A DNA stretch of 64,000 nt from an uncultured Candidatus Saccharibacteria bacterium (GCA_964471165.1 CAYYEX010000003.1:79499-143498), one strand, 5' to 3'; positions 11,435 through 64,000 are shown, counted from the first letter of the stretch. Translations and numbers: made by a program. Notes: a model not told the origin generated them from the letters alone.

Positions 11435-13162
11435 TTAACCCGTCCAGTTGAAGAGGAGAATCGAGAAGTCGGCCAAGTTTACCGTATTGTCCTCGTTGAT
11501 ATCGGCATCGGGGTCATCCTCGTTCCAATGCGTGAGCAAAATCGAGAAGTCGACCAAGTTTACTTTTCCGTCTTTATTGATGTCGGAGCGATTGTCGTTA
11601 TCGACCTGTCGCGATGGAGCCTCCCCCACTCCCACGTACACAGGCGCGCTGTATTCACTCGAGGCAGATGGGGTAACTGTTTTTACTTTAATATCATACG
11701 TGCCACGTTTTAAATCTTTTGCGGGGATTGTAAACTCCCAGACTCCACCAGTGCCTGCAGCATTCTCTAGTGAGGTAGACGCTGTGTACTCCTTCGCTAC
11801 CCCCGCTGTGCCACTTGCCGGCACATCGCGAACAATGAGGTGAACGATGGTTCCCGGCACTCCAACGCCGGAGACACGCACACTCTCGGCCAGAGCAACC
11901 GATTCGGAATCGGGCGAAATCGTTGGTGAAAGCAGAACTCCGGTAATACCGTTTACCGTACCGGCATTCAACGTGAGCGTCGAAGAAAAACGTGACGACT
12001 TTCGTGCTCTTGCGTCAGTTGCAAAACTCACGAACGAATAGGTGCCTCGCTCAAGCGCTGAAATTGTTGTGCTAAATGCGCCGCTGCTTCCCGCAAGCAC
12101 GTTGGCCTGCTGCGTGCCGTCTTTCAATATTGTTACCGAGCTGTTTGCTGGTGCAAATCCGGAAATCTTTACCGTTGACTGGAACAGCAGTGAGCTGCCG
12201 CCCGCAAATGAGCCCGCTCCTCCAGAACCACCTGCCCCACCCGCTCCCGTAGACGCAACCCCCGGCGTATTGCCATCCGATGTCGTAACCGTTGGCGTGG
12301 TTGCGAGTGAAAACGTGTGCACGTAGTCGCTCTGTGCTGTTGCTCCGAATGTGTCGCGACAACGGATGTAGTACGAATAGGTTCCCCCGTCAGCGAGGCC
12401 GCTCACAACGCCGTAATGGAGTTGCTGGCCAACCGCTGAAAACGTGTTTGGCATTGATGCATACGTGATTCCAGAGGATGTGGCGTATTTGCAGGTCGCC
12501 ATAACATTTGTTTGAAATGAGAGCTCAACCATGGCGCTTCCAGCCGGAATTGTTCCTGTCGGGAGCGCATTTAATACCTGTGGCGCATTATCGGTGACGA
12601 CAGTCGTAAGCGTAATCGGGGTCACAACCACAAACATTGCTTTGGCGTCGTCGATTGGGGTTGCGCCGTTTGCCGTGTTCACACGAACGCGGTACGAACC
12701 AGGGAGCGCTGGGTTGACGGGCGATACATCTCCAACAACTTGGTGAGTCGCATTCGTGCCAAGAATAACGCGCACTGATTCATTTGCTGCAATGCCACTA
12801 CCCGATGAAAGCGCAATCGTGATTGAACCCGAGGCACCGCTTACAACCGTGACGCCGTCTTCGCTCGCACTCGGTAACGCTGCAAGGTTGTGTTCCGCAT
12901 ACGGTCCGCCGTTGGAGACTGCAACATCAACGTCGGTAAAATCAAATCCTCCGGGAATACTGAAGGCATCTTCGGGAGTAATGGTAATCGTTCCCGATGC
13001 GGGCACTGCGTTTCTGACCGTGAACGTAACAATATGGTTCGCGGCACTCGAAGGCACAGAAGTTGAAATGAGATCCGAAATCGGTGACATGTATCCCGCC
13101 TGTACAGTATGCAAAGCAATGAGCGGTAGCACGAACGTTATTACAACAAGAAAGCGCCGCAT
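11435..13162 (-). CDS. secreted Ig-like/beta-sandwich repeat protein with a C-terminal type-I dockerin domain
   Basis: Signal peptide MRRFLVVITFVLPLIALHTVQA. The ORF extends to 13429, but the start was chosen at 13162 just after the upstream stop. The C-terminal tandem DINKDGKVNLVDFSILL ... DINEDNTVNLADFSILLFNWTG forms canonical dockerin Ca-binding repeats. Confidence 0.7.
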   Translation of the reverse strand: MRRFLVVITFVLPLIALHTVQAGYMSPISDLISTSVPSSAANHIVTFTVRNAVPASGTITITPEDAFSIPGGFDFTDVDVAVSNGGPYAEHNLAALPSASEDGVTVVSGASGSITIALSSGSGIAANESVRVILGTNATHQVVGDVSPVNPALPGSYRVRVNTANGATPIDDAKAMFVVVTPITLTTVVTDNAPQVLNALPTGTIPAGSAMVELSFQTNVMATCKYATSSGITYASMPNTFSAVGQQLHYGVVSGLADGGTYSYYIRCRDTFGATAQSDYVHTFSLATTPTVTTSDGNTPGVASTGAGGAGGSGGAGSFAGGSSLLFQSTVKISGFAPANSSVTILKDGTQQANVLAGSSGAFSTTISALERGTYSFVSFATDARARKSSRFSSTLTLNAGTVNGITGVLLSPTISPDSESVALAESVRVSGVGVPGTIVHLIVRDVPASGTAGVAKEYTASTSLENAAGTGGVWEFTIPAKDLKRGTYDIKVKTVTPSASSEYSAPVYVGVGEAPSRQVDNDNRSDINKDGKVNLVDFSILLTHWNEDDPDADINEDNTVNLADFSILLFNWTG

Positions 13163-13163: not shown

Positions 13164-14009
13164 CTATAAATCTTTGACGCAGCGGAATCCGGCAGCCTCG
13201 CCTGCGAATGACGAAGGCACCGTAATGTTGATTGCGTATTGTCCTGCATCGGCCTGACTATTCCAGTAGCCGCCGCGCAAAATACCGCGCGTGTCGGTTG
13301 GGTCGAGCCAGAAATAATCGTTGAAAAACGATTCATCGGGAGTGTCGTGGTTAGTCGCAACCGGTGTGCCGTCTCCATCGATTCCCGTAATGTATCCCTC
13401 TTCAGGAAGCTTTTTTCCTTTGAACTCACCGTCGGTCACTGTTTCTTGCATCCACTCCCACGCGTTTCCAATCATGTCATACGCGCCCGACGGCGACACA
13501 CAATCTTTTCGTACGCCTGTTTTGTCCACCGCACCGCTGCCACGCAGACCCACGTTGCAGCTATCACTGGTGAGCGTTTCGCTGTCGGGCGTACCGAGCG
13601 CAGCTTTGTACCACTCAGATGCGCTCGGGAGCCGCTTGCCTGCACGCGCGCACGCATATTCCGCCTGGTCACGCGAAATGTTTCTCCACGGAGACTTTTT
13701 TGCAACGCTCGTCGGCTTACATGCCGAGATGGCAAGGTTATCGCTCGTTTGTGCTTTACTCGCAGGGTCTAGCGATGGACAGGAATCATTGGCAGATGCT
13801 TCATACGCGTCGATGCAGAAACCACCCCCGGTAGTGCCCACAAACGCCATTCCACTCGGGCATCTGCTCGCTTGCCCAGCAACTGCACTAAACGCCGCGC
13901 CGAGCATGGAGTTCTGCGGGGTGTCGCGATTATCAAATGCATTCAAACCGACTGTCGTGAATACGACCGTGCATACTGTCACAACGATCCATCGCAGGAG
14001 CGCTTTCAT
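13164..14009 (-). CDS. formylglycine-generating enzyme (FGE/SUMF1) family protein, secreted
   Basis: GNAWEW, RGGYWNS and GFRCV motifs of the FGE-sulfatase domain. N-terminal signal or anchor. Confidence 0.75.
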   Translation of the reverse strand: MKALLRWIVVTVCTVVFTTVGLNAFDNRDTPQNSMLGAAFSAVAGQASRCPSGMAFVGTTGGGFCIDAYEASANDSCPSLDPASKAQTSDNLAISACKPTSVAKKSPWRNISRDQAEYACARAGKRLPSASEWYKAALGTPDSETLTSDSCNVGLRGSGAVDKTGVRKDCVSPSGAYDMIGNAWEWMQETVTDGEFKGKKLPEEGYITGIDGDGTPVATNHDTPDESFFNDYFWLDPTDTRGILRGGYWNSQADAGQYAINITVPSSFAGEAAGFRCVKDL

Positions 14010-14040: not shown

Positions 14041-14445
14041 CTACGCAATCATCCGACGTCCGCGTCGGAAATCCATATAGTAGTTTGCGGCAACAAGAAC
14101 GAGCACAAGGATGCTGACGCAAAAACTTGCGGCCGCCAATGTGCGCGTACTGGTGAGCGACCCGCCCGAGATAGCTGCCACAGTTGCTTCGCGCGCATCA
14201 AGATCTGCCTGTTTTTGTGCGAGCTGCTCTGCTGCAGTGTTATACGGATTTGCCGGCACTCCAGCTGTCATGCCAATAACTGCGCTTCCCGCCATAGAGG
14301 CAGCGGTGTTTACCAGGACCTTCGGCGAGTCAATTGATGTGGCATACATAAACAGCGCAAGGGCAATCACAATCGCTGTGCGTCGAATCACCTCTTTTTC
14401 GTGTGAGACTGTATTTGGGCGCTTCTTCATGCATGTATTATGCAA
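14041..14445 (-). CDS. small 2-TM membrane protein
   Basis: ORF with two hydrophobic helices. Overlaps the upstream gene by 8 nt, so it is likely co-transcribed. Confidence 0.45.
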   Translation of the reverse strand: MHNTCMKKRPNTVSHEKEVIRRTAIVIALALFMYATSIDSPKVLVNTAASMAGSAVIGMTAGVPANPYNTAAEQLAQKQADLDAREATVAAISGGSLTSTRTLAAASFCVSILVLVLVAANYYMDFRRGRRMIA

Positions 14446-15511
14446 ACATCAGGAACAAAAGTACGAGGAACATGATGGCGAGGAACAAGAGCGCAAGGGC
14501 TATGATGAGCAGCTTTGGAACCGGCGACTGATTGCGACGCGCATATAAATCTCCCCCACCGCGTCCCCCGCTCATTTCGCGGAGCTTACGCGAGATATAC
14601 ATACGCACGAGCATATAGAGCACCAGGAGTGCCGCGAAGAGTGTGCCGAGCACGGTGAGAATAGGCTTGAGTGGAAGCACCCAGAAACTCGTCGCAGCGG
14701 ATACGGTTTTTCGACCATCTTCGCCGTAAACCATGCTCACAACTGCCTGGTATCTGCCAAATGCAACTCCGTCGTATTCCCACGTTTCAGTAAATGTTTT
14801 ATCGGTTGCCGGGAACACACCCGCCCCTATATCGTTTACTTTGACAACGCCGACTTTCGAACCCCGCATGTCAGTAATTTCTATAAGACCGTGCGGTCGT
14901 AGCAGAACATTACCGAGGTTGGCTATTCGCGTCTGTATATCTACCTGCGCTGCCGAACCATACACAATGTGCCCCGTTGAAAATTCGCGCAGCTGGGCGT
15001 CCTCAACCGCGTCGCCTGCAATGCGTAGATTGATGATTGAGCCAATTTTCAGACCGATTGCAGCCCCGTTCTCTCGCTGCTTCGGCGGTCGTGCGTCCAA
15101 AAAGACGCCGCCAAAGTGCGCACCCGGAGACGCGTCATTCGGCACACGAATGGTAAATGGAACACTTCGCGCTTCGTTGGGCCCGAGTGTAATCTGCGCA
15201 TCCGGCAATTCAATCCACGAACTTAATTCATATGGCGTAATTTCTGTTTCCTCGGAAAAGATTGGCAGGCCCGCATCAGTGAGGCCTGAAATATCTTGTG
15301 CAGTGAGATAGAACGTCTTTTCGCTACTGGAAATATTCGTGACACGAATCGTAAAGTTATAGACTTCGCCAGGATCCGCACGGTCTTCAATAACAGCCGG
15401 CTTGATTTCGATACCTTCTGATAATTGTGCAAATGCAGCGTTTGCCCCTATCAGTAATGTAAGGACGATGACAGATATGCCTACAAGCTGGTTTCGCAGT
15501 GTTGCGTTCAT
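14438..15511 (-). CDS. cell-surface protein with DUF916/CscA-like architecture (signal peptide, ~270-aa ectodomain, TM, cytoplasmic tail)
   Basis: Paralogous to the 17015, 18352 and 36775 proteins. Shared blocks include VPNDASPGAHFGGV, LREFSTGHIVY, NLGNVLLRPHGLIEITDMRGS and GRYQAVVSMVYGEDGRKTVSAATSFWVLP. The family assignment is by architecture and memory, not by search. Confidence 0.55.
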   Translation of the reverse strand: MNATLRNQLVGISVIVLTLLIGANAAFAQLSEGIEIKPAVIEDRADPGEVYNFTIRVTNISSSEKTFYLTAQDISGLTDAGLPIFSEETEITPYELSSWIELPDAQITLGPNEARSVPFTIRVPNDASPGAHFGGVFLDARPPKQRENGAAIGLKIGSIINLRIAGDAVEDAQLREFSTGHIVYGSAAQVDIQTRIANLGNVLLRPHGLIEITDMRGSKVGVVKVNDIGAGVFPATDKTFTETWEYDGVAFGRYQAVVSMVYGEDGRKTVSAATSFWVLPLKPILTVLGTLFAALLVLYMLVRMYISRKLREMSGGRGGGDLYARRNQSPVPKLLIIALALLFLAIMFLVLLFLMFA

Positions 15512-15559
15512 GGTTGCTGATCGAAAAAAGATTATGTGATTACTCTACCACGGCCCCTG

Positions 15560-15597
15560 CATGCAACATCCCCGCTACACTGCGGGGATGTTGCATG
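15560..15597. other. perfect 16-bp hairpin (catgcaacatccccgc-tacact-gcggggatgttgcatg) in the intergenic region between two surface-protein genes
   Basis: Seen in the sequence. Lies between the stop at 15618 and the next start at 15511. It may be a terminator or attenuator without a clear T-tract, or an operator. Confidence 0.6.
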
Positions 15598-15617
15598 AAA
15601 ACAAGACTTTTTCGAGC

Positions 15618-16763
15618 TTAGAAGATAGGTGTTGCGACGTAGGTCAGTGTGTTGGTGTAATCAGAACCTGCTTCCTGCAGCGTTCCGATTTCCAATTTGT
15701 ACGCTACAGTCGTCGAGCCTACACCGGCGGTTACGCCATCAGCTGGAGCGTTGTGATACATCACTTGGCGAGGCACGTTGAATTCACCAGAGAAGAGCTG
15801 TGTGCCGAACTCATCGCCACCTGATAGCACTGCGTCGTCACTCGTGAGGCCGAGGTGTCCATACGTGGCTTCTGTACCAAGTGTATTGAGTGGAGATGTC
15901 CAGGCGGTGGGCGTGCTATTAGCACCATCCTTGAAGGTGTCGATATCAGCACCCGTTGATGAGAGGAGGTTTGTGTCTTCGACAACAGTCACCGAGTAAC
16001 CGAAGGCAGCGTTTGTGACTACGTTCAACCGTTGACCGAGCACTTTTGGCGCACCGGCCGTCAGCGTACCGAAGGCCAGATACGTCGATGAGGAGAATCC
16101 GGTCAGTGTTTCGCCGTTTACAACAGACGATGTAGCCATGCCGGTAATCGAGAATGTGAATGTTGTGTCCACCGAAGCGGTTACAACCACATCGTCGATG
16201 GCAACAACACGCGTTTCGCCGAAGTCGCTGTTACCGCTGTTTGTCATCGTGATGCGGTACGAGCCAGCCGTAATAGGATTGGTGATAATTGGCGTTGAGG
16301 TACCGATAACAAGTGTCTTTGCTCCCGAGGTAACAGTGTCACCCGCGCAGACCGTGAAGGAAAATCCTTCCGAGCCACCGGTGTAATTTTGCGAGAATGT
16401 GACTTCGTCTGACCCACCACCGCATGTGGTAACGAGCGTCATGCCCGTAGTTTGAATCTGCGTCGTGGTTGCTGATGGACCAATCATTGAGAAGTTGCTT
16501 CCTGCAGGATCGAGCACAAATGCCATCACGCTCCCTGCTGGAGATGATGATGCTGTTGTGAAGCGCACAACGTGCTTCGTTGCGACGCCGAGATCGGAAT
16601 CCGACAGCGTGTCGCTGATGCTCGTCACCTGTGCGGCGTCTGCCCTATGCATAAGCAAGGGTGCGCCCGTGGCCCACAGCAAGGTTGCGATGATGAGAAC
16701 CATTGCAAGGGGCGACGAGAGGACCGACGCAGCCGGATGCTTAACTTGTTCGAATAGGTTCAT
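15618..16763 (-). CDS. secreted surface protein (381 aa), partner of the DUF916-like anchor. C-terminal tail ...TLTYVATPIF.
   Basis: Signal peptide, a Thr/Ser/Gly-rich beta-rich composition, and a conserved C-terminal block shared with the 19704-21041 protein (YK[LV]E...Y.[VI].TP[IV]F). Confidence 0.55.
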   Translation of the reverse strand: MNLFEQVKHPAASVLSSPLAMVLIIATLLWATGAPLLMHRADAAQVTSISDTLSDSDLGVATKHVVRFTTASSSPAGSVMAFVLDPAGSNFSMIGPSATTTQIQTTGMTLVTTCGGGSDEVTFSQNYTGGSEGFSFTVCAGDTVTSGAKTLVIGTSTPIITNPITAGSYRITMTNSGNSDFGETRVVAIDDVVVTASVDTTFTFSITGMATSSVVNGETLTGFSSSTYLAFGTLTAGAPKVLGQRLNVVTNAAFGYSVTVVEDTNLLSSTGADIDTFKDGANSTPTAWTSPLNTLGTEATYGHLGLTSDDAVLSGGDEFGTQLFSGEFNVPRQVMYHNAPADGVTAGVGSTTVAYKLEIGTLQEAGSDYTNTLTYVATPIF

Positions 16764-17014
16764 ATAAATAGAACTTTTTTGGCTTCTTTAATAAGCGTGT
16801 TAATTGCGCGAATGTGTCTGCACCCTAGAGAGAAAATACGCGTCCACCTGCTATCGCTCGACCGAAGCAGCTAAAAACGTACGGGGCCTGATAAACTCGC
16901 ATGTGTAAAGTATACGGCATCCTGTTGACAAAGAAGTTGATATCAAGCCAAACCATGTGGATAACGGCCTAAAAACGTGGATTTCTGGGTGGATAACACT
17001 GTGGAGAGCGTGTT

Positions 17015-21043: not shown

Positions 21044-21550
21044 CTATTCTCCGGTGCTCGTAATCGGGCCGACTTCGATAATCCTATCGATTGACGGTCG
21101 ATAGATTATTGCTTTCTGCGAAATCATGTACATGAGCACCTTGTCACCGAGTTGCGCGTTTCTGAAAAACGCCTGACCTTCAAGGGCGTGCAGGTCTGTC
21201 ACTGTTGCAAGGGCGGGTGTTTCGCTCTCCGGCAGGAGCATGTGCTCCCCCACGTCGGCAACAAGAGCGCGGACTTCGCGCTCCGTGCCACCAAAGAAAT
21301 AACCCCATAGGTGGGTTATGCCGTAGCCCAGCAGAATTAAAACAACAATTGCAACAACTCCCGCGGCAAGCGTCATAACTGCGCGCTCACGGTTGCGTTT
21401 TGGCGCTGAGCGCGCCCGAGGCACCTCTACCGATTCTGCTTCGCGAGCACGCATATCACTCATCCGCGCTGGTGCGGGTGTTGGTTGCATCGTCTTGCGA
21501 AGGTCGATGGTCATACTATTGTTTCGACCCCTGTATCGACTGAACGACAC
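21044..21550 (-). CDS. small membrane-anchored protein (168 aa)
   Basis: Single TM (VVAIVVLILLGYGITHLWGYFFG). The ectodomain is weakly similar to the adjacent 21516 protein. Confidence 0.4.
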   Translation of the reverse strand: MSFSRYRGRNNSMTIDLRKTMQPTPAPARMSDMRAREAESVEVPRARSAPKRNRERAVMTLAAGVVAIVVLILLGYGITHLWGYFFGGTEREVRALVADVGEHMLLPESETPALATVTDLHALEGQAFFRNAQLGDKVLMYMISQKAIIYRPSIDRIIEVGPITSTGE

Positions 21551-21917
21551 GAGAGGTGTCTTTCATGTTCTCCCAAAACGTTATTGATTCTTTGCGAATA
21601 TATATGGTGTCTTCCGGTCCGTGGAGTTCGCCACCAAGTTTTACGAGATTGAGATTGGACTGCGTAAGTTCGCTCGCCTCTTTGAGGTAATAAACATCGC
21701 TGAGTGTTACGTAGTCGCCGCTTGTGTCAGAAAGCCTACCGAAATACACCTGTCCGCTCTGCAAAAATACTGCCTGATACTTTTCTGCCGATGCAGCAGG
21801 AAACGCAGCCCGGGATTGAAGCGGGCCAATGTAGCTCGTATAGAGCCAGATAGCGACAATAGCGATGAGCGCGTACGTTATTCCCTTAATGAGGCTCTTG
21901 AGAATGAGGTCAATCAT
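21516..21917 (-). CDS. small membrane-anchored protein (133 aa)
   Basis: N-terminal TM. The ORF overlaps the downstream gene. Confidence 0.4.
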   Translation of the reverse strand: MIDLILKSLIKGITYALIAIVAIWLYTSYIGPLQSRAAFPAASAEKYQAVFLQSGQVYFGRLSDTSGDYVTLSDVYYLKEASELTQSNLNLVKLGGELHGPEDTIYIRKESITFWENMKDTSRVVQSIQGSKQ

Positions 21918-21920
21918 ATG

Positions 21921-32065: not shown

Positions 32066-32082
32066 ACTGAGGAGGCTTCTCC

Positions 32083-43868: not shown

Positions 43869-43942
43869 AACAAAAAACAGTGCGCGTGGCACTGTTTAGT
43901 GTATCATCCGTCGGCTTCGATTTTTTTAAAGCTGCGGAAAAA

Positions 43943-44266: not shown

Positions 44267-44374
44267 ACTGTCGTGCCATTGTACTCTATAGATTCTCCCT
44301 TGCCATCATCGTTTTCCCCTAACACATACCGCCGCAATCAGCGGCGGTAGCGGTGTCTCATATCGAACGCTATC

Positions 44375-56700: not shown

Positions 56701-59700
56701 CACTCCCCTTTGCAAACACGCCGGAGGCACCGAAGGTAAGATTTCCACCAATAGTTACCTGCTGGGAGCCAGGCGAGAGCGTGCCGAAATTGACCGTGAG
56801 CGTGCCGTCGACATCTAAGAGACTCGAAAGTGTCCACGTGGCCGCGCCAGAGCTTTGCCCGAACGTTACGTTATTAAATGTTGCGAGTGTTGCCCCCGTT
56901 GAGTCGATTGATTGGCTCGACGTTGTTGCGGTGAAAATGATGGTCGATGCATCTTTATTGAAGGTGGCGTTGTTGTCCCACGAGCCCGAGAACGAGAGCG
57001 TGTTGCCGTCGGCGGTAAGCGTCCCGTTGTTTTCCAATCCGTACGCGGCTACGTTTCCGCTCGAAGCGCTGTCAGGACGGAATATGTTGGAGGCCTTAAC
57101 CCAAATTTCGATGTCGTTACAGGAGCCCGATGAACTCAAGCAAGTCGCAAGGTCGTTCCCCGCATCAACATCATAGAAAATATCTTCGTCAGCCGAAACC
57201 GAATTGTCGTATTGCGATATATTCGTATTCGTTATTGTTTGATTATCGTCGGAACCGAGAGAGAGATGATGTTCGTACATCGTAAGGCCCGTGACGTCTC
57301 CGTTGCCATCGTATTTGGTGATAGCAACGGCTTCGTTTGCTTCCGCTGCCCCGTCCACAAACACTGTTACGATGTCGTCTTCGAACACAGTAACGTTTGC
57401 AATGGTGAAGCTACCGCCAGAAATCGTAGCGGTCTTACCTGCCTGGACAACGCCGTTGACTGCAACGGCAACGATGCCGCTCGTAACGTTCGTTGACTGG
57501 TCGTACTGCTGAACAGTCCCGGAAACATTAATTCCTTGTGCCCAGGTGAGAGTCCAGTCGTTGAGTGTCGGGCAGTTACCGGAAACACAGGCGAGATCTG
57601 CTTTCATGCGAATGGTGCTGTAGGTGAGCCGGTTCACATTCGAAATATCTATCGGGGACGTGGTCGTGCCGGTCGAGTTGCCTGGAATAACGGCATCCGG
57701 AATCAGGGCCCACGAACTTGTTGATGTGAAGTATTCGACGTGGAGGCGCACTGTGCTCGAACCAGGTGTGGTTTTACTGAATGAAATGGCACCCCATTTC
57801 GGACCACTGCCATTACCAAAAACAATCGACGACGACTCAACAGTACCCGCCACGAACGCCGGGTAGCGTCGGGCCACGATATCGATTGGAATTGTTGGCG
57901 GTACGACTGTCGTTATGGAGTTTGTCTCTATCACCTGCTTGGTCGACCAGGTTGTCCCGTTCCAAAAACTGAATTCGTATTCAGTATCTGCATCGTCATA
58001 AACCAAAACCAGGATGAGCCCGTCCCCGGTACGTGCGGTTCGCACTTCTGCTGAGTCGAACATCGTGTTCATGACTGCCGGCGCCGTGGTTGCGCTTCCG
58101 TTCCAGGACTCGTACTCGATTTGTGTAGTATCAGAGTGAACCATCATCGTGTACCCGTCACGAGAACCCGCCGTCTCGTATTCACACGAGACGGGTCTGC
58201 CGTTGACGCTGTTTCCCAGTGCCTCGACTTCCGTAGTTCCACTCCACGATGAGCCTGTCCATGTCGCGTATCCAATATCGGAATCAGCATCGACGTAACA
58301 GAGCGTCATACGATCGGTTCCTACATCACGCGTAATACGACCGTCTTCGAAATCGTTTCCGGTTGCAACCGTTGAGGTTGCGGCCCACGCACTTCCGTTC
58401 CATGAGCTCCAGACAAAACTATTGAGTGTTCCGTTGGAGACCGCAATAACCGCCTGTCCGCCACTCTCCTCATATTCTGCGGCTATGCCCTCGTTGGCCA
58501 CCGTGGCCTGCGCACCCGGGCGCAAAGTATTTCCCCATGCTGAACCACTCCACACCTGCGCTTCATAGTCGACTGTGCCCGTGGTCGTGTCTCGCACAAT
58601 TAGTATGATTTCGTCCGACGTCGGGTCGGATATGAGCTTCACCCATTCGCAATTTGTTGAAACGCCCAACGTGATTGTAGAGGTCGCAGTCCAACTCGAA
58701 CCGTTCCATACGCGATATGTTGCCTCGGTTCCGTAACACGCCACCACGAGCGCATCCCCTGATGATGTTTCGTACGCAACATCAAATCCCCGCTGTGTTG
58801 GGTCGGAAACTGCAGTGTTCATGCGCGCAATATTTCCTGCTGTGTCCGTCACACCATCAATCACTTGTGCATCAACAACACCCGTTGAACCTTCGGTTGC
58901 AATGATGTATTCATCTCGCGTTGGGGCTGCCGCTGTTTCCTCGAAACGAATCGTGTCTCCAACAGACACTCCCGAAAGTTCACTTCCCCACACAAGTCCG
59001 TTCCAGAATCGGAAGCGCGGCACCTGTACTGTTAGCTCCGAATACACCATGAGTGCTTCTTTAATTGTGGTCGTGATTTGTGCCTTACCCGCACTCGTTT
59101 CAATGTCGGTGAGCGTGTTCGAAAGAAATTGTTCGTTTGTTGTTTGGAACCACGTTGATACGTTCACAGAAGTGTCGATAGTAAAGCTGCGCAAATCCGA
59201 CCACACCGACCACACATTGCCGCCTGCAGGGTCAATGGCGCGAACTTTCCACCAGTAGGTTGTTCCATCTGTGAGCGCATCGGCTGCTTGGAGTTTGAAA
59301 TTGATGAGATTGTTCTGGGTAAACGGAGATGTGTCCGACGAGGACGCACTGTTGGTGAAGCCCGCGTCTAGACTCGAGCGACGAGTGGTTGAAGCAGTAA
59401 AGTCCTGTGTGGTAGAAATCGTAACCTCGTATACGAGGTCGTCACTCTGTGGGTCGGTTGATTTGAACGTGAAAGTCGGCGTTGTTGTGGCTGTTTTTTC
59501 GTTGTCGAAGAGTGCTGTGACGGACGGCTGTTCAACCGCAAACCCCCATTGAATGGTCCAGTCAAGCAGGTGCGGCGTGAGGCCACTGTTTGTCATGTTG
59601 GCGCGCACCCGAATCTGGTTATAAATTGTCGGGCTCACGGAAAGGAGTGACACCGGAGACGTGTCGTACCCGACCGCGTTACCGGACAGGTCAGAATCCG

Positions 59701-62700
59701 GAATGAGTTCCCACGCAGCGCCGTCGTAGTATTCGATGTGATAGTGAATATCGCTCGATGTCTCGGTGTCCGTAAACGAGAGCTCGCCCCACGCGTTGCC
59801 GGTTGCCTTCCAATCAAAGTCGATGAGCGAACTCGAGGTGGTACCGGTCGTAAACGGCGGCGTAATGATGACATCGTTGGTCGATGTAGCTTCCGTATCT
59901 TCGTGGTCGTCGGATGCAAATTGGTAGAGCGTCGTTTGCTTCCACGTAGAAATAGTGACGGATGTATCGACTGTAAAACTCTGAATGTTCGACCATGGAC
60001 TCCATTCCGTTGATTTATTTCTGTCTTTTCCGCGGGCACGCCAGTAGTACGTGGTCCCGTTTGACAGTGCAGTGGTCGGCACAAAGCGCGTCGATTGCCC
60101 AGGTGTAAAAGGGTCCTTATCCGACGGAGTGGTGAGGTTAGTAAACTCGTCGAGGTTTGTTTGCGAATCACGGTCAATATTCACTGAACCAAATGCAGAA
60201 TCGTCATCGATTTGTATCTGGTAGGTAATGTCGTCGGACTCCGGGTCTTCGGACACAAATTGGAACCACGGGGTGGTCGACGCGAGTGACTCGTTGTTAA
60301 ATGGAGCCTCAAGAGTGGGAGCCCCTGGCGCAGAGTCTGTAATGAGACTTGGATAAAAATCGTATTCGCTCAGTGCAACGCCCGAGTCAGTAACAACACG
60401 GAAGCAGTAGTTTGTATTTCCACTCGCATTATGCTGAATCGCCCAGTCCCATTCACCTTCATTGCCTACTGAAACCGAGGTCGGGTTTGCAGCCGAATCG
60501 TTCGTTTCCTCGTAGCTTTCATTTGAGTCACTGACTAATAGCAATGTCGTCGGTACTGTTGCACCGTCGGAGAGTGACGCGTTATCATATCCTCGCCATG
60601 CGGCTGTGGTGGAACCTACCGCACCGACATCCTGCCAAGTCATAGACGCACTACACGTAGCCCCGGCGGCATATTGCAGCTTGAGTCGGAGGTCTCCAAC
60701 TGAGAGGGTCACGTTTTCATTCAGCACACCCATGCGTAATCGCAAAACGTCATTTGGAGATGGTGAATAAATCACCGGTATGGGTGAATCTTCTGCCAAA
60801 TCAGTACCACCCGAAGGCCATGCGTCGGTTGGTGTGAGCGACGTCGCATGATTTGCGTACCACCTGAAATGCGTTTGGGTGAGGTATGGCTGACGTTCCC
60901 ACGAAACAGACCAATCATCGATTTGTGGCGCGCTCGTGTTTGAGGTGCTAAACGAGGCGCGCAAACAAATGCGATTGTATGTCGATGTCGAAAGCGCGGA
61001 GATATTCATCGGCGACGAAGTGGCATCGAACCCGACGGAGTTCCCCGGCAGCGTGCCGTCGGGCACCAGCGTGGTGCAGCCGCTGCCGCCATCGTAGAGC
61101 ACCTGCACCACCACATCGGTGCCCGAGGGCTCCGTTGTGTGCCAGAGAATCTCGCCCCACGTCAGTTGGCTTGGCACGAGGTCAAAGTCGATAATACTGC
61201 TCGTCATGGTCCCGGAAGACGACTCGAACACTTGCGCCGCCATATCGATTGGCTGATAGAACGGCGTGGTTGTAGCGGAGGGCGTTGACTCAAGCGCCGT
61301 TGCTGTTGACCACGAGGTTCCATTCCAATCTGAGAAGTCGTAGCGCGAATTCACATCGTCGTGGAAGAATGCCAAAATTCCGCCCGCTGCAGTTCGCACA
61401 GAACTCACCGTCCACGAGTCTTGTACAGTGCTGATTGTTGCCTCCGCTGCCCACGACGTCCCATTCCAATATTGATAGCGAGCAGCGGTAGTATCAGAGT
61501 ATGAAAGCATCACGTAGCCATCGCGACCCGCAGTAGTTTCGTACTGACAATCCACCGCGCGCCCGGTATTCGCGTTGCCTACCGTATCGCGCTCATCGCC
61601 CGCCGCAGTAAATGCATCCCATGCATTTCCATCCCATACGAGGGTGCCTATGTCGGCATCTTGATCGATGTAACAGAGGGACATGGCATCCGAGCCAACA
61701 TCACGTCGGAGCCGTCCCCACTCGAAATCGTCACCGAGTGCTTGGGTTTGTGTAATACCCCATGATGTGCCATTCCACGAACTCCACACAAATCCGCTCG
61801 TAATCCCGTTGGATACTGCGATAATCGCTTGGTCACCTGATTCCTCGTATTCCACGGCGATTCCCTCGTGGGCGACATCAGACATTGAGCCCAGTGTCTT
61901 TACGTTCCCCCACGCACTGCCGTCCCACACTTGTGCTTCGTATATGGAACCAGTATCACGCTCAACGAGAATAATTTCATCGGAAAGCGGGTCGGCGGCA
62001 AGCTGAATGTATTCGCAGTTATTAGCGCTCGTGATGTTCACGGTTGCAGGAGCGCTCCATGACGAACCGTTCCACACTCGATACGATGGGTCGGCATCGC
62101 CGTCGCAATACACCGTCATAATGTCTCCGGAGACTGTTTCGTAGGCAAGATTAAATCCGCGCCGCTGGTTGTTTGTGACGCCGGTCGTCATTTCTGTAAC
62201 AGTGCCCCATGTGTCGGCAACGCCGTCGAATATTTGTACGTTCACGTCGTTTTGGTTGTCCTGTGTGCCGAGAACGTATTCGTCTCGTGTGGGCGATGCT
62301 TTTGTTATCACCCACTGAACAACGCCGCCGATGGAATTCGCGGAGCTCTCCGAACTCCATGCGGTACCATTCCAGATTCGGTAGCGTGGTGTTTGCACAG
62401 TTCCCTCTCCGTAGGCAACAAGTGCTTCTTCTGACGGAGAAATGGCGAGACGCGCGGCGTCGGAACCGAATGTTTCGGCTCCACTCATTGTATTGGTATC
62501 GAACTGCACATCAGTTGTTTGGAACCATTGCGATGGTTCAGTGCCCGCAAGGTAGGTAAAGCTCGTCGTGGTTGCCCACGCACCGTATGCTGAACCACTT
62601 TCTTTTGCTCGCACTCGCCAGTAGTACGTCGTACCGGAAACAAGCGGAGTCTGAATCGTAAAACGAACTCGTTCGGTTTCATTGAACGGCGAGGTATCTG

Positions 62701-64000
62701 CAGGCGTGGTTAAGTTTTGGAAACAATCAGGTGAGCAACCAGTTTCGACATCGGATGTTCTATCGCCAATCGGAGAAGAGTCGAGATCGGAGTCATCGTC
62801 CCACTGTACTTGGTACAAAATGGTGTCCACTCCATCGGGGTCCGATGCACTGAATTCGAAGACCGGTGTCGATGTACCCATTCGTTCGTTTGCAAACGGG
62901 ATGTCATAGAGCGTCGGCGCACTCGGCGAAGCGCCGCCGGCACGCTTTGCAAATACCGCAGTGCGGTATGGCGGAAGACTCGATGTTGTCGAAAACGCAG
63001 AAATGCTAATCGAGTGCACATGCGCTGCCGTCGATACGTTTGTGCCCGCAACGTTTGCTCGCGAGACCGTGCCACTCGGTCCCAACGAGTTAAATCCTGT
63101 AACATCGGTATGTGTGTGCGTGGAAGCGCCACCGCTGGTGCCGTATGTCGTTGATGCTTTTGCAAAACGATTCGCGAACGGTTCGGTAGAACTTGAAACC
63201 GTGCTCCAACCTGGCGGCGGATCTCCGCTCCACATCGCAATCATGTCGTTGGTTGGTGAGGATGTTGCGGTCAGTTTACCGAAGATAGCTTCCATGTACG
63301 GTGGTTCGTGAGTATCGCTCAGCGTTGTTGTGCTTACCGCGTGTGTGTGGGCAGCAGCAGCAACTGAAATGGCAGTGCCTGGGTTTTGTGCGAGCACGGT
63401 GGAAACGGCTGCGCCCGTTGTGCCAGAGACATCGTGTTTGTGCGTGTTTGAACCACCAGTCGTTCCGACAGTCGACGTACTTTCGCCGCGGATATAGCTT
63501 CCGTTTGGGGCAGTGTAGGCAGTCCAGCCCGAAGGGACCGCTGCATCAAACATTACAATTGCCCCTGCTGGAATGGTTGGTGGCTCTCCCGCTGAGGTGT
63601 ACTGAATGATTGCGAGCTGCCGGTATGCAGGCAAGGAACTCGTTGCGGTAACTGTTGGAGTAAGTGAGTGGGTGTGTGCAACAACCGGTGTCGCTTGGTT
63701 GTTTGCCCCAACTGTTTGTGATGCGGCGGAGGCAGTTACGGCGCCCGTTGCAGTGTGTGCAAATGTGGCCGCGCCACCATTAGTTCCAGCAGTCGATGAG
63801 CCCATGACGAAGCGTTGATAGAAACTGTCGGCGGGCAAGCACGATACGCATGTCCAGCTTGGTGGAATCCACGCTTGGTCCCAATACACCAACATGTTTC
63901 CGACGGCGTCGGAAGCGATTTTCCACTGACGCGGTTCCTCGAACGGTATACCGTCCCCACTCTGCACCTTTGCTGGGCCGAGAAGATACATGTAGGGAGA
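47717..64000 (-). CDS. giant multidomain surface protein, longer than 5424 aa and 5'-truncated (N-terminus beyond the window end)
   Basis: A single uninterrupted minus-strand ORF. It contains tandem phage tail-collar-like repeats (PSGWT...HTH...LPPY), three Fn3-like units, three copies of a ~140-aa domain, two propeller-like segments (EAQVW[DS]GSAWGN), beta-helix-like ~65-aa repeats (FYN..F.G.GG.W.F...GG.F.HNNG), three ~790-aa super-repeats, DUF2341 (RWRADDGG...DLRFTDSTGTTTIPYYIE...VYMYYGN), a LamG-like domain and a C-terminal module shared with the 37861 protein. Confidence 0.8.
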   Translation of the reverse strand, partial: SPYMYLLGPAKVQSGDGIPFEEPRQWKIASDAVGNMLVYWDQAWIPPSWTCVSCLPADSFYQRFVMGSSTAGTNGGAATFAHTATGAVTASAASQTVGANNQATPVVAHTHSLTPTVTATSSLPAYRQLAIIQYTSAGEPPTIPAGAIVMFDAAVPSGWTAYTAPNGSYIRGESTSTVGTTGGSNTHKHDVSGTTGAAVSTVLAQNPGTAISVAAAAHTHAVSTTTLSDTHEPPYMEAIFGKLTATSSPTNDMIAMWSGDPPPGWSTVSSSTEPFANRFAKASTTYGTSGGASTHTHTDVTGFNSLGPSGTVSRANVAGTNVSTAAHVHSISISAFSTTSSLPPYRTAVFAKRAGGASPSAPTLYDIPFANERMGTSTPVFEFSASDPDGVDTILYQVQWDDDSDLDSSPIGDRTSDVETGCSPDCFQNLTTPADTSPFNETERVRFTIQTPLVSGTTYYWRVRAKESGSAYGAWATTTSFTYLAGTEPSQWFQTTDVQFDTNTMSGAETFGSDAARLAISPSEEALVAYGEGTVQTPRYRIWNGTAWSSESSANSIGGVVQWVITKASPTRDEYVLGTQDNQNDVNVQIFDGVADTWGTVTEMTTGVTNNQRRGFNLAYETVSGDIMTVYCDGDADPSYRVWNGSSWSAPATVNITSANNCEYIQLAADPLSDEIILVERDTGSIYEAQVWDGSAWGNVKTLGSMSDVAHEGIAVEYEESGDQAIIAVSNGITSGFVWSSWNGTSWGITQTQALGDDFEWGRLRRDVGSDAMSLCYIDQDADIGTLVWDGNAWDAFTAAGDERDTVGNANTGRAVDCQYETTAGRDGYVMLSYSDTTAARYQYWNGTSWAAEATISTVQDSWTVSSVRTAAGGILAFFHDDVNSRYDFSDWNGTSWSTATALESTPSATTTPFYQPIDMAAQVFESSSGTMTSSIIDFDLVPSQLTWGEILWHTTEPSGTDVVVQVLYDGGSGCTTLVPDGTLPGNSVGFDATSSPMNISALSTSTYNRICLRASFSTSNTSAPQIDDWSVSWERQPYLTQTHFRWYANHATSLTPTDAWPSGGTDLAEDSPIPVIYSPSPNDVLRLRMGVLNENVTLSVGDLRLKLQYAAGATCSASMTWQDVGAVGSTTAAWRGYDNASLSDGATVPTTLLLVSDSNESYEETNDSAANPTSVSVGNEGEWDWAIQHNASGNTNYCFRVVTDSGVALSEYDFYPSLITDSAPGAPTLEAPFNNESLASTTPWFQFVSEDPESDDITYQIQIDDDSAFGSVNIDRDSQTNLDEFTNLTTPSDKDPFTPGQSTRFVPTTALSNGTTYYWRARGKDRNKSTEWSPWSNIQSFTVDTSVTISTWKQTTLYQFASDDHEDTEATSTNDVIITPPFTTGTTSSSLIDFDWKATGNAWGELSFTDTETSSDIHYHIEYYDGAAWELIPDSDLSGNAVGYDTSPVSLLSVSPTIYNQIRVRANMTNSGLTPHLLDWTIQWGFAVEQPSVTALFDNEKTATTTPTFTFKSTDPQSDDLVYEVTISTTQDFTASTTRRSSLDAGFTNSASSSDTSPFTQNNLINFKLQAADALTDGTTYWWKVRAIDPAGGNVWSVWSDLRSFTIDTSVNVSTWFQTTNEQFLSNTLTDIETSAGKAQITTTIKEALMVYSELTVQVPRFRFWNGLVWGSELSGVSVGDTIRFEETAAAPTRDEYIIATEGSTGVVDAQVIDGVTDTAGNIARMNTAVSDPTQRGFDVAYETSSGDALVVACYGTEATYRVWNGSSWTATSTITLGVSTNCEWVKLISDPTSDEIILIVRDTTTGTVDYEAQVWSGSAWGNTLRPGAQATVANEGIAAEYEESGGQAVIAVSNGTLNSFVWSSWNGSAWAATSTVATGNDFEDGRITRDVGTDRMTLCYVDADSDIGYATWTGSSWSGTTEVEALGNSVNGRPVSCEYETAGSRDGYTMMVHSDTTQIEYESWNGSATTAPAVMNTMFDSAEVRTARTGDGLILVLVYDDADTEYEFSFWNGTTWSTKQVIETNSITTVVPPTIPIDIVARRYPAFVAGTVESSSIVFGNGSGPKWGAISFSKTTPGSSTVRLHVEYFTSTSSWALIPDAVIPGNSTGTTTSPIDISNVNRLTYSTIRMKADLACVSGNCPTLNDWTLTWAQGINVSGTVQQYDQSTNVTSGIVAVAVNGVVQAGKTATISGGSFTIANVTVFEDDIVTVFVDGAAEANEAVAITKYDGNGDVTGLTMYEHHLSLGSDDNQTITNTNISQYDNSVSADEDIFYDVDAGNDLATCLSSSGSCNDIEIWVKASNIFRPDSASSGNVAAYGLENNGTLTADGNTLSFSGSWDNNATFNKDASTIIFTATTSSQSIDSTGATLATFNNVTFGQSSGAATWTLSSLLDVDGTLTVNFGTLSPGSQQVTIGGNLTFGASGVFAKGSATTTFDGTSSSTWTDNTVAKQDLGTTTIDGTAKTVLLGAAAKVTNLTIGADDTFNVNSNYALEILGNFTNNNSFLAQNGTVSFTATTTGKTITPGSSSFYNIVFNGTGGNWAFTGPVTAGNDLTLTAGTVTLPSSTTTVTGSFTTSAGTFQHNNGVVLFNAASAGKSVTPGASSFYDLTFSGTGAWSFGSANATSSRTMRITQGAVTFPTGTLVVGGSFIKTGGSFAHNNGTLKLTATNAQVLQFSGSDTFNLTFSGSGGTWTFNDASATSTGSVRFESGTPTLPSGTFAVGGSWTNAGGAFMHNNGSVRFNAAGSGYTIQPGASSFYNTLFDSATGGWTISQSATSTNNFILNNAASFVLTSGFALGVGGTFTNSLAPASTTWTGTTLTLYSGGTYSINTKTNAGDSYATLVLSTSTKVSMWNSSTTIAVVGSGSSLYSQDNAGVDGDLYIYGDYTRGAGTEFWTYGNDFDGTPLGGSARAVNVKVASSSTLTFNGGLLQFIGSATASSTVSNQGAGAYALNVAGGTINAQYYRVRNTDANGLNISGSVSVTSLADGDYVLSSNGGTMLTIASTVVDANAALQIQRASFATSTGITTGFNITETGTPSSYWWFRNHYGNYAGESFDIDPGGNPGFIRWDDSNLTITVAGRVYSDNGATAIGNPPCDGSTQSVRVVVNGVTSYTGSCNAGTGAYSIAGVAIAGEVVLTAFLDTNGGRRAVTISRTPTTDIANFDLYENAVIVRHEDTSPITIEQVAVFTNTQDSDIPFAAATSTPPATFTLSPNTELYVWAGKTFTPGGNVTLTSGGSGDARDGRLMLATSSAFVATGTETHGIGGGLAVASGATFTTANSTFTFTATTSGKVIYSSIPISFYDLIFNGVGGGWSLVSTATTTASNTFTISAGTLSGTGDLHVSAGSMTGAGTIAMTGGTVQLSATGVFGSVSPWSFNSLVFGSGTTDTTSKTGVGSTTVSNALIIATGQTLNASSTNWVLTGANTPFIVNGTFNAQTAPFFFTSSAATTIADTSYAALYFTPATAGTPVYTLRGGSLSATALNIGGANPVSVDINTNDPTVTVSGNVAIGASSIVTASNVNVFNVGGSWSNAGAFTHSNGDVNFNSTDTGETIDPGASSFYRLVFNGIGGGWTISQNATSTNDMSITNASAFTLSPNRTLAVGGTFTNSVTDSATTWATSTLSLYSGTSYSLNTRSSTGDTYGTLLVDASTRVRMWNSSAATTTVNSTGSLYSQDHAGVDGSLYIWGAYTRSSGNDYWSYVTDFDGTSLSTSTPRAVSVRIATSSSLTFSGGGLDIAGTSTATTTIANQGAGRYAFTVTGGTFNAQYYQLRDTDTNGLSFSGAPTITSLSDGDYLLNVNGGTMITVASSVIDANPLKIFARNNFSTAVGSGFNVLATGSSVSSWKFNLHYGDFDGEALDSDPAGDPGYLRWDDSASNITIEGNVYSDEGTTVSTVCDNSTQVVRLKIQGAGSYTSSCNSSTGLYSIPGVAFNPGDTITVFLDTAGGRRAANVSVDPISSISNMHLYENRVIVRHEDVNPITIAAMTQYDSDQDSDIPFNATIAGTNTLVVEPNIKLIVFTNKTFAPAGNVTLTSGGSGTAWDGTLEVFPGATFTASGAQAHSIGGSLLIDSGATLTSALSTFTMTATTTGKTITLNTSSLYNVVFNGIGGNWAFGSSTMTALNDFTITTGTVTMPSATTTIGGSFQNTGGIFQHNNGTVLLNSTASGKSVRVNGSSLYNIDFNGSGGTWSFVDSTATSSNNFTVTTGTVTAPTTQLTVGGSIQNFGTLTVGTGTLKLTANATGKLIRTGGSSLYNVLVDGVGGGWTFSDTNATATRDFTILNGTTTLPTGVFTVGGSWNTAGGGFTAGSGTVTLNATTTGKTVDTGSSSFASLIFNSATGGWTISQNATSTVDTTISAAASFTLANGKTLAVGGVFTNGVGGAATTWATTTLSLYSGTSYSINTKSAGSDVYGTLSVGTSTHVRMWNSTAATTTVNSTGSLYSQDNAAIDGTSVDGDLYIWGAFVHSTGTDYWNYAYDFDGTLLGGLSRRVNVKIASSSSVTLSGGTLEILGSTATTTIQNQGAGRFAFSVTGGTLNASHYQIRNTDPSGLNFSGTPSITSLDYGDIQLGVTGGAMITLAGSVIDANASKQINYVSFATTTGISSGFNVVRTGSPISAWTFLNHNGNFAGESYDSDGGDSCGSVRWSDSACLFVNQGHYRWRADDGGVGVPDSEWYNASWTKRKRIAISNSTASTLTNQAVQIVVDYDSDMQSDFEDLRFTDSTGTTTIPYYIEKSIASASSTVWVRLSSIPANGSAVVYMYYGNSGVSDGGDGSNTFTFFDDFEDNNITEYTNADTPNVYFGTNAGFQHNYTYGLAARQPPDPDQRSSKTTAGGVYRAGSLIPRDSTIRFFQYMDIDWEDEPCTFFAVQGSGSNYAVCLDQYPTEKVALVKDATSNDGSGTLIASTTVTFTTGWYEVKIDWLSAGNAINVTVYNSAGAVFATVSGTSSAYTTGGMGFGFWYQHGGWDFYSARPYVAAAPTYLFGGEQTSGGATWAAAEDTVLNGMQTGQNLRVRFTVQNTGSALTSEQLRLQFAPKGNSLNCESVSYNDYEDVPKTSSGCNGKAACMTTSSQFADQAAISDLLSRPANMSFVQGKAVEDPSNDSSSNNVGTNYATEVEYNFQLTTNAIASAYCFRTSRPSLAFPGSLDSYDHVAEVVIAHSPSITNFNWPLSQTISGIPLTEGTTTTISATGTVTDLNGYTDILAASSSIFRSGVGSSCTGNDNNCYKVPSCSLTLCSGNSCTLTCSALVQYFADPTDSGTTYSAENWLASVRVRDASGLYGSATSSGAEMLTVRGLSVSTSITYDDDAVPGMTPGSDTGSRVATTTVLNTGNVPTDIRLSGTALGSIPVGSQQYSTSTFTYSACSVCAFLTGASTNAGLSIPKVTASSTPTSSDVYWGIAIPIPTGTGVQSGTNYFEAAAP
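49950..57000 (-). repeat. three tandem ~2.36-2.4 kb diverged super-repeats inside the giant gene (approximate bounds)
   Basis: The landmark GGT.NA[QS][YH]Y..R.TD is encoded at about 55.10, 52.69 and 50.37 kb. The protein blocks SLYSG.SYS.NT...MWNS...LYSQD.AGVDG.LYI.G are colinear in each unit. Confidence 0.65.

Follow-up and report, generated by a model that had tools for sequence, protein, structure and literature searches.

A conserved surface-protein supercluster of Paceibacteria and its candidate Pam-type pilus

The subject of this analysis is a window of 64,000 nucleotides (GCA_964471165.1 CAYYEX010000003.1:79499-143498), part of a 173.5-kb metagenome contig (ENA ERZ27247837), which carries from position 10,903 onward an island of 28 genes, nearly all for exported or membrane proteins. 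The island is almost certainly a conserved, chromosomal and lineage-wide supercluster of the Paceibacteria (Parcubacteria). On balance, it is best explained as a two-module surface-appendage system around a divergent form of the Pam pilus, which was described in a 2026 preprint for Candidatus Mycosynbacter amalyticus (Saccharimonadia) and is reported mainly in Saccharimonadia and Microgenomatia (bioRxiv 10.64898/2026.03.03.709456). The core of the island is most likely a divergent member of this kind of pilus, found in a lineage with no earlier Pam report. By analogy with the Pam precedent, and because of adhesin-type domains in the island proteins, the overall function is likely to be attachment to a host cell or a surface. 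The Paceibacteria are among the most abundant uncultured bacteria, and the way in which these tiny, metabolically dependent cells attach to their partners is largely obscure. The proposed reading suggests for about 25 "hypothetical" genes, conserved across the class, a definite function that can be tested, and would extend the Pam pilus beyond the two groups named above.

Of the 28 genes, 26 are encoded on the minus strand and two, at 32083-32859 and 32875-33657, on the plus strand. With the sole exception of the ABC ATPase (41081-42427), each product has a hydrophobic N-terminal segment, a C-terminal transmembrane (TM) helix or both, as called by a simple hydropathy scan and not by SignalP. 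An earlier note on this DNA, made from the sequence alone, had described a co-directional island of almost exclusively exported and membrane proteins, and its account of gene order, strand and product type holds. Its starting point of 11.4 kb marks a real run of genes, which effectively begins at 10,903 when the redoxin gene (10903-11424) is included. The same note was right that no biosynthetic enzyme interrupts the island: it contains no cytoplasmic biosynthetic gene, and its FGE-like and redoxin proteins are extracytoplasmic enzymes. Profile checks verified the cohesin, dockerin, DUF916, FGE, redoxin, MacB, Fn3, PD40 and giant-protein domains, some members of these families scoring below cut-off. 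Within the island, BLAST reveals paralogy among the proteins with two immunoglobulin-like (Ig) domains of 357, 446 and 439 amino acids (aa), between the C-terminal domains (C-domains) of the 381- and 445-aa proteins, between the 635-aa protein and the second of two giant proteins, between the 575- and 377-aa proteins, and among three cohesins. The base composition is flat along the window (GC 0.50-0.55), and general Pfam scans of the window's open reading frames (ORFs) gave no integrase match, so the island is not obviously mobile. Since chromosomal synteny is kept as well, a mobile element or prophage was rejected.

Pilin-like proteins and two-Ig proteins of module A

Module A spans 10.9-22.8 kb and holds the two proteins that connect the island to the Pam pilus: P381 (381 aa, 15618-16763) and P445 (445 aa, 19704-21041), the latter a candidate tip or minor pilin. 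Here and below, the genes of the island lie on the minus strand unless stated otherwise. Residues 299-445 of P445 match the NCBIfam model NF058581 (CPR_Pam_pilin_C) along positions 3-148 of its 148, with an E-value of 3.3e-8 and a score of 33.7 bits, the curated NCBI cut-off being 55 bits. Of 38 members of the P445 family, 35 match this model, the best at 8.4e-11, and five also match NF058579 (PamT). The P381 family yields weak NF058581 matches for five of 36 members (best 6e-4). The C-domains of P381 and P445, each of about 180 aa, are homologous according to both BLAST and hhalign (99.8%). As judged by these profile comparisons, P445 and P381 appear to be remote homologues of the Pam pilin C-domain.

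In Pam pilins, one linker strand connects a nine-stranded N-terminal domain (N-domain) to a truncated Ig-like C-domain, into which the linker of the next subunit fits (bioRxiv 10.64898/2026.03.03.709456). P381 is predicted to have the same two-domain build. Its AlphaFold2 (AF2) model (pLDDT 82) places nine strands at residues 47-188, a linker strand at 202-208 and the C-domain at 240-379. The P381 family has more than 1,000 homologues and no Pfam match. In its alignment, the linker and the C-domain are most conserved, a pair of cysteines is invariant, and the protein always ends in ...ATPxF. Sequence searches of the PDB with the profile of this family, A1, and with two other family profiles, A2 and A3, gave no match. 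A C-domain of the P445 type is not confined to proteins of this size. In locus L006, it ends a 2,032-aa protein (1159-7257) whose upstream part resembles the repeats of the giant, and similar "large pilins" of about 2,000 aa occur in L106, L111 and L115, a situation comparable to that of the 635-aa and 6,362-aa proteins of module B.

The assembly of Pam relies on PapD/FimC-like chaperones (PamC and PamD) with a C-terminal TM helix, on a tip pilin and on a membrane-anchored terminator, with no usher; the terminator or anchor of the PamR type is RbmA-like, with a C-terminal TM helix and an extra N-terminal strand (bioRxiv 10.64898/2026.03.03.709456). In module A, three membrane-anchored two-Ig proteins accompany the pilins, which equals the combined number of PamC, PamD and PamR in the Pam operon. 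They comprise a 357-aa protein with a C-terminal TM helix (14438-15511), regarded as a candidate Pam-type chaperone, and its paralogues of 446 aa (17015-18355) and 439 aa (18352-19671). The two-Ig proteins have a fold like that of PapD, FimC and CsuC and end in a TM helix, so that membrane-anchored candidate chaperones of the PapD/FimC type stand in the same operon as the pilin-like proteins; the 439-aa protein also gives a faint match to a fimbrial chaperone family (E 0.025). No ORF of the window matched an usher family in the Pfam scans.

The island thus resembles the Pam system in its secreted two-domain pilins with paired cysteines, its TM-tethered PapD/FimC-like chaperones, the lack of an usher and the grouping of the components in one operon. 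The preprint further names ATP synthase genes as typical pam neighbours and notes a tail-fibre-like gene (bioRxiv 10.64898/2026.03.03.709456). A tail-fibre-like gene lies near module A as well, namely that of the first giant (2,822 aa in the gene call of the source contig, 22867-31335), which matches Gly_rich_2 (5e-12, 46.7 bits) and Peptidase_G2 (4e-6, 26.9 bits). Unlike Pam, the island belongs to a Paceibacteria lineage, shows a remote homology that stays under the curated cut-off, and has no ATP-synthase neighbourhood. It also has closely linked additional parts: the cohesin-TM anchors, the dockerin proteins, the ABC pair of the MacB type, the protein with Fn3 domains and a second module that includes the giant of 6,362 aa. 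The earlier note had regarded the whole as not yet described as one system. In view of the preprint, this no longer applies to the Pam-type core, but it does apply to its combination with cohesin and dockerin, MacB and the giants.

Several points speak against a Pam-type pilus. The NF058581 scores remain under the curated cut-off of 55 bits, even for the best member of the P445 family (about 40 bits), and P381 itself gives no match to this model. The structure models are single-chain AF2 predictions. The likeness to Pam was drawn from the NCBIfam models and the published description. ATP synthase genes are absent from the 64-kb window. Finally, the preprint reports no assembly ATPase, cohesin or dockerin, so that such parts of the island are without precedent, and it mentions neither WxL, DUF916, cohesin, dockerin nor Paceibacteria (bioRxiv 10.64898/2026.03.03.709456). 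With these points taken into account, a donor-strand pilus of the Pam type remains the probable product of module A.

Such a pilus would be assembled as follows. P381 and P445 carry Sec-type signal peptides and are therefore expected to be exported via Sec. Their incomplete Ig-like C-domains would be held by the three membrane-anchored PapD/WxLIP-like two-Ig chaperones, and the pilins would then polymerise by donor-strand exchange, the linker strand of the incoming pilin filling the C-domain of the previous one. The chaperone-usher pili (Pap, Fim, Csu) share with the island the PapD-like chaperone fold, an Ig-like pilin domain with a conserved C-terminal aromatic strand and, presumably, the exchange of donor strands. 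They differ in that the island has no outer membrane or usher, that its chaperones are TM-tethered, and that its pilins have an extra N-domain and would donate an internal linker instead of an N-terminal extension.

The two-Ig proteins can also be seen in another light. In the WxL/Csc clusters of Lactobacillales and Bacillales, the WxLIP protein consists of DUF916, DUF3324 and a TM segment (PMC1534035, PMC9772566, PMC10599100). Against WxLIP_PGBD (DUF916), the 357-aa protein scores 31.5 bits (cut-off 27.3), and the 446- and 439-aa proteins score below the cut-off. In addition, tblastn matches of the two-Ig proteins reach annotated DUF916 proteins. These observations leave room for a CPR (candidate phyla radiation) version of the Firmicute WxL/Csc complex, in which WxLIP anchors hold peptidoglycan-binding partners as static adhesin platforms and no filament is formed. 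The resemblance extends to the arrangement of the genes and to the mode of attachment: a two-Ig anchor of the DUF916 family adjoins secreted partners, small and large partners have one common C-terminal domain, and attachment would be non-covalent, with no sortase. Furthermore, there is a similarity in pattern between the last strand of the partners, DYTNTLTYVATP, and Y..TLTW.L.DAP, the second of the WxL motifs, which is a lead only.

The partners themselves argue against this explanation. They have no Pfam WxL match at E≤10 and no W-x-L motif in their last 220 residues, and hhalign and profile comparison with six genuine WxL proteins (loci L089 and L091), taken from the WxL clusters of Enterococcus gilvus pCR1A and a Bacillus tropicus plasmid, gave probabilities below 1%. 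Membership of the partners in the WxL family was rejected on these grounds. No LPXTG-like motif lies near any C-terminus encoded in the island, general Pfam scans gave no sortase match, and the partners have a pilin-like two-domain build and match the Pam pilin model instead. The label "Csc-like", which the earlier note had given to these genes, is therefore appropriate for the DUF916-like membrane-anchored proteins, but not for their partners. A static WxL/Csc-like platform is considered improbable, even if the two readings do not fully exclude each other, since the insertion of strands may play a part in WxL clusters too (PMC10599100).

The proposed reading links the Pam chaperones to the DUF916/WxLIP proteins of Gram-positive WxL clusters and would so join two separately described systems. 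As a corollary of the more tentative idea of a single organelle (see below), the Firmicute DUF916/WxLIP proteins and the Pam chaperones would form one family, and WxL clusters might also use strand complementation. DUF916-like genes adjoin small secreted beta-rich proteins on a Deinococcus plasmid (L090, 4969-10571) and a Clavibacter plasmid (L093, 5146-6960) as well. These proteins end in ...NATLTYTLESS... and ...DYSSTITLSLFE, much like the last strand of pilins and WxL proteins, which hints at a wider family of DUF916 proteins with partners beyond Firmicutes and CPR.

Module B and the conservation of gene order

Module B occupies 32-64+ kb and ends beyond the window. Its most conserved gene, which is also the most conserved of the whole island, encodes a membrane-anchored two-Ig protein of 335 aa (36775-37782) that joins the three DUF916-like paralogues of module A in profile comparison (hhalign 97.6%). 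The AF2 model (pLDDT 82.5) shows two Ig domains and a long C-terminal helix. An invariant, free N-terminal strand, AGFGITPPYV, is left unplaced in the monomer model, which is how a strand destined to pair with another protein should behave. Next to it lies the gene for P635 (635 aa, 37861-39768), a Cys-rich secreted protein that ends in an invariant tryptophan and has no match in Pfam, NCBIfam or the PDB. It shares a homologous C-terminal domain of about 235 aa with the second giant, whose gene (47717-64000) runs past the end of the window and encodes 6,362 aa in the source contig. The second giant scores 85.5 bits for DUF2341 and 52 bits for Ig_Rha78A_N. As the giant has the C-domain of P635, the two may represent a small subunit and a giant tip adhesin.

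Further genes of this module encode a permease of the MacB/FtsX type (402 aa) and an ABC ATPase (448 aa), both at 39871-42427, a membrane-anchored protein with three Fn3 domains (487 aa, 42429-43892), a small protein with two TM helices (107 aa, 43943-44266) and a coiled-coil-like membrane-anchored protein (228 aa, 46997-47683). The permease with its MacB_PCD and FtsX domains and the separate ABC_tran polypeptide were confirmed, an arrangement also known from FtsEX and LolCDE. Unlike MacB, FtsEX or LolCDE, the island has no partner for membrane fusion or outer-membrane passage, as profile scans detected neither a membrane-fusion adaptor nor an outer-membrane exit duct in it. The ATPase differs as well, by a C-terminal extension of about 220 aa, which has no family match and is conserved alongside the permease in relatives. 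For Pam, neither the gene neighbourhood nor the cryo-electron tomography data showed any machinery for retraction (bioRxiv 10.64898/2026.03.03.709456), so that the strictly co-conserved MacB-type pair becomes a candidate source of energy. FtsEX and LolCDE offer an analogy for the MacB/ABC/Fn3 trio, which, as a speculation, might do mechanical work on the outer side of the membrane.

Module B may follow the same logic as module A with unrelated sequences. The 335-aa protein would be a fourth two-Ig anchor or chaperone, P635 the subunit and the 6,362-aa giant with its lectin domains the tip adhesin; a second dockerin protein of 377 aa, two cohesin-TM anchors and a cohesin-dockerin adaptor would provide the base, and the MacB-type ABC motor with its Fn3 partner would complete the set. 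What counts against this extension of the Pam reading is that the C-domain of P635 and the giant shows no detectable relation to the Pam C-domain in global and local hhalign, iterated profile searches and family-family comparison. Apart from a motif pattern in the same order, no signal linked the two domains. To call module B a pilus is thus to argue by analogy, and a second fibre with the giant at its tip is rather unlikely.

The conservation of the island was assessed by a scan for the 335-aa family with one genome per species, which found relatives in at least 185 genomes. Eighty loci were fetched and mapped by tblastn, and 80 metagenome loci were examined besides these 80 species-level Paceibacteria genomes. 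The relatives bear names such as Candidatus Pacebacteria, Paceibacterota, Minisyncoccia and Adler-, Lloyd-, Kaiser- and Sungbacteria, all within the Parcubacteria/Paceibacteria. Single components such as the 381- and 335-aa proteins have hundreds to more than 1,000 homologues each, none with a Pfam domain.

In essentially every sufficiently long locus of the 80 species genomes, down to 44% identity, module B shows the same order. The gene for a giant is followed by those for the 228-aa, 107-aa and Fn3 proteins, the ABC ATPase, the MacB permease, the 635-aa and 335-aa proteins, the DUF4215-dockerin protein and two cohesin-TM proteins; the cohesin-dockerin and 258-aa genes come next on the opposite strand, and then a gene for a protein with a helix-turn-helix (HTH) and a TM helix and that for another giant. 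Counted among the loci that reach the expected position, the 635-aa protein is present in 65/65, the DUF4215-dockerin protein in 66/66, the two cohesin-TM proteins in 64/64 and 51/60, the MacB permease in 56/60, the ABC ATPase in 50/54, the Fn3 protein in 46/52, the cohesin-dockerin adaptor in 46/53 and the conserved C-terminal part of the second giant in 35/46. Module A also has a recurrent order: the 445-aa gene, two two-Ig genes, the 381-aa gene, the third two-Ig gene, a small TM gene, optionally the FGE gene, the gene for the pilin-like dockerin protein and either the optional redoxin gene or a cohesin-TM gene. It is kept in L004, L006, L096 and many metagenome loci, a 74%-identical genome and a 50%-identical contig of 758 kb with different flanks being among the examples, and the 357-aa two-Ig gene directly follows the P381 gene in 31 of 42 loci. 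Modules A and B adjoin each other in GCA_040959275.1, as they do in a divergent relative represented by a JGI contig of 43 kb. The genomes that diverge most have a single gene of the P381 type inside module B, between the DUF4215-dockerin and cohesin-TM genes (L075, L082, L084, L085, L088, L142, L146-L149 and L161).

The components that the earlier note had grouped together are thus syntenic and co-conserved, in the 80 species genomes as well as in the metagenome loci, down to an identity of about 42%. This conservation of gene order across distant relatives points to one linked system. Its degree is unusual in some of the genes. The 335-aa protein retains 60-80% identity, and the MacB and ABC proteins reach about 90%, values that are unusually high for adhesins and could instead mean an essential envelope function, which is a further objection to an appendage. 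Accordingly, the 335-aa, 635-aa, MacB/ABC and cohesin proteins might form a housekeeping system, similar to an S-layer, that builds or maintains a general surface layer of these wall-reduced cells, with the giants as components of this layer. The presence of the system in at least 185 species genomes would fit such a role, as would the fact that transporters of the MacB/FtsX type elsewhere act on the envelope, an example being the FtsEX of the window itself. The upstream motifs that P381 and P635 each possess likewise suggest abundant structural proteins. On the other hand, no S-layer family is matched, and the pilin homology and chaperone-like folds point to fibres. Moreover, the giants vary strongly in length and content (the first giant measures from 1,233 to 2,822 aa among relatives, or is absent), and one slot of the island is variable, a pattern typical of genes for host interaction. 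The chance that the island serves a surface layer of this kind is accordingly rated as small.

A mere neighbourhood of independent, functionally uncoupled surface genes is very unlikely. Small genomes do tend to pack their genes co-directionally, and the genes for PD40, FGE and redoxin vary in their presence. Against this, some 12 genes keep the same order in candidate groups such as Adler-, Lloyd-, Kaiser- and Sungbacteria, where protein identity has dropped to 42-50% and the flanking DNA is different, and modules A and B interleave in some genomes.

Cohesins and dockerins

Three proteins of the island carry a dockerin. The first, in module A, has 575 aa (11435-13162) and consists of a pilin N-domain, a linker strand, Ig domains (Big; Big_6 match) and the dockerin, which scores 25.1 bits for Dockerin_1 where the cut-off is 22.9. 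The second, in module B, has 377 aa (35632-36765) and matches the profiles of the Cys-rich repeat DUF4215, of Ig domains and of a dockerin, whose score is exactly at the cut-off (22.9). The third is a cohesin-dockerin adaptor of 260 aa with an N-terminal anchor (32875-33657, plus strand); its dockerin lies below the cut-off (20.5 bits) and its cohesin, with 28.6 bits, above the corresponding cut-off of 24.1. A duplicated DxNxDGxxxxxD repeat can be read directly in all three proteins. Two additional cohesin proteins with C-terminal TM anchors, of 331 and 320 aa, are encoded at 33673-35627. The larger one (33673-34668) scores 35.5 bits, and the smaller one (34665-35627) is linked to the cohesins only by its BLAST similarity to the other two (about 2e-11). 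The plus-strand gene at 32083-32859 encodes a membrane-anchored protein of 258 aa, a conserved partner of the adaptor gene.

The 575-aa protein connects these modules to the pilins. Positions 37-243 of the profile hidden Markov model of the P381 family match its residues 16-248 with an E-value of 5e-12. The match extends from the pilin N-domain into the linker strand, and no C-terminal acceptor domain follows. Such a protein could donate a strand but not accept one and thus resembles the terminator of a fibre. The same architecture is found in L004, L006 and L087. In 18 of 29 loci, a dockerin protein is encoded no further than 5.5 kb from P381, and dockerin and cohesin-TM genes adjoin pilin and chaperone genes in many loci, a cohesin-TM gene often directly following the dockerin gene of module A. 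The 575- and 377-aa proteins have Ig domains and a dockerin in common, and the mature N-terminus of the latter, ADDISTSVTLLV, resembles that of P635, ADDVSTSVTVLN, a hint that module B may end its fibre in a corresponding way.

This domain arrangement suggests that the pilin-dockerin fusion is a pilus terminator plugged into membrane cohesins, an arrangement that appears to be new. A literature search for cohesins, dockerins or WxL in Parcubacteria or Patescibacteria gave nothing relevant. The 575-aa protein would end the fibre, and its dockerin would plug the base of the fibre into the membrane-anchored cohesins of the island. Anchoring of this kind, which is somewhat less likely than not, would represent a new use of cohesin-dockerin pairs, as base anchors of a pilus. 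A single integrated organelle, with two donor-strand fibres on cohesin-dockerin plugs (the 575- and 377-aa proteins as terminators), a giant tip adhesin and a MacB motor, is a somewhat more tentative idea and rather unlikely.

With cellulosomal and non-cellulosomal cohesin-dockerin pairs, the island shares type-I-like dockerins with two calcium-binding repeats, and cohesins that include an adaptor with both modules. In contrast to cellulosomes, it has no enzymes or carbohydrate-binding modules, its cohesins are TM-anchored instead of being attached by S-layer homology domains or sortase, and one of its dockerin proteins is a pilin-like fusion. A cellulosome-like display, with cohesin scaffolds presenting dockerin-bearing enzymes for the breakdown of polymers, is very unlikely and the least probable explanation: the cohesin and dockerin modules are genuine, including the adaptor, but the three dockerin proteins carry Ig, Cys-rich-repeat and pilin-like domains, and profile scans of the island proteins found no catalytic domain, carbohydrate-binding module or glycoside hydrolase.

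Accessory genes and regulatory sequences

Some genes of the island are accessory. The redoxin gene (10903-11424) encodes a membrane-anchored, TlpA-like thiol-disulfide oxidoreductase of 173 aa (Pfam Redoxin 6.4e-14, 52 bits). It was found in 4 of 26 loci overall and is syntenic in L004, L006, L099, L108, L109 and L117. A protein with the FGE-sulfatase fold and an N-terminal TM anchor (281 aa, 13164-14009) matches the family with 2.1e-13 and 51 bits, the match covering only positions 86-255 of the model; its gene is present in 9 of 29 loci. The role of a canonical FGE is not supported, as no CxPxR-type substrate motif (C/SxPxR in context) occurs in the secreted proteins of the island. The FGE and TlpA-like proteins that the earlier note had counted among the parts of the system are hence present with profile support, but as accessory members.

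The slot at 44375-46930 is variable. In the window, it holds a gene for a protein of 851 aa with a PD40 beta-propeller and He_PIG, which is present in none of the 80 related loci, so that the proposal of the earlier note fails for PD40 as part of a conserved system. In the close relative L008, a Kelch-propeller/He_PIG protein occupies the same slot (416-3469), which may be a place for swappable binding modules.

Among the smaller genes, three for membrane or secreted proteins of 156, 133 and 298 aa (21044-22817) keep their place between P445 and the gene of the first giant, and one for a membrane protein of 129 aa with hydrophobic segments near residues 17-30 and 99-117 (14041-14430) is conserved after the 357-aa two-Ig protein. 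Another protein of 129 aa (31343-31732) combines an HTH, with a weak HTH_17 match (E 0.0036), and a single TM helix (residues 85-103); its gene is syntenic upstream of the first giant.

The divergent intergenic region at 31733-32082 contains three copies of a 17-nucleotide, partly palindromic motif, GTATACCCCRTGAGATA, which occurs six times in the window against an expectation of 0. The sites are 9284-9300 (plus), 9339-9355 (minus), 10493-10509 (minus), 31986-32002 (minus), 31997-32013 (plus) and 32049-32065 (minus). Besides a position upstream of a tRNA-Thr gene, they occupy the two divergent intergenic regions, one of which separates the HTH-TM gene from the genes on the cohesin side. The motif may serve as an operator or as part of a promoter, and it could be the lineage-specific motif mentioned in the earlier note. 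A different element, the DnaA-box-like TTATCCAC, is located upstream of the genes for P381 and P635, the putative major subunits (16957-16964, 16989-16996 and 39818-39825, all on the minus strand). As a motif enriched in the entire window, it was rejected, since three sites against 1.1 expected are not significant alone. At the gap between the MacB and P635 genes, T[AG]TCCAC was found in 29 of 63 related genomes, with about one expected (gaps of L009-L088). GC-rich inverted repeats occur at 15512-15617 (CAACATCCCCGC...GCGGGGATGTTG) and 44267-44374 (ACCGCCGC...GCGGCGGT). They look like terminators or attenuators and, being situated between genes of the island, suggest several transcription units.

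The first 10.9 kb of the window hold housekeeping genes for a cobalamin adenosyltransferase, CTP synthase, FtsEX (6552-8262), RF2, three tRNAs, an HD protein and an iron permease. The tRNA genes, for tRNA-Gln (2131-2202) and tRNA-Thr (9419-9494 and 9668-9743), are all on the plus strand. The long ORFs at 2009-2428 and 9225-9725, which overlap them, are spurious. A frameshift in the RF2 gene, considered for 8392-9725, was dropped, as the gap contains the two tRNA-Thr genes. A short tandem repeat, (CCTATAA)n, is found at 7482-7578 in the spacer between ftsE and ftsX.

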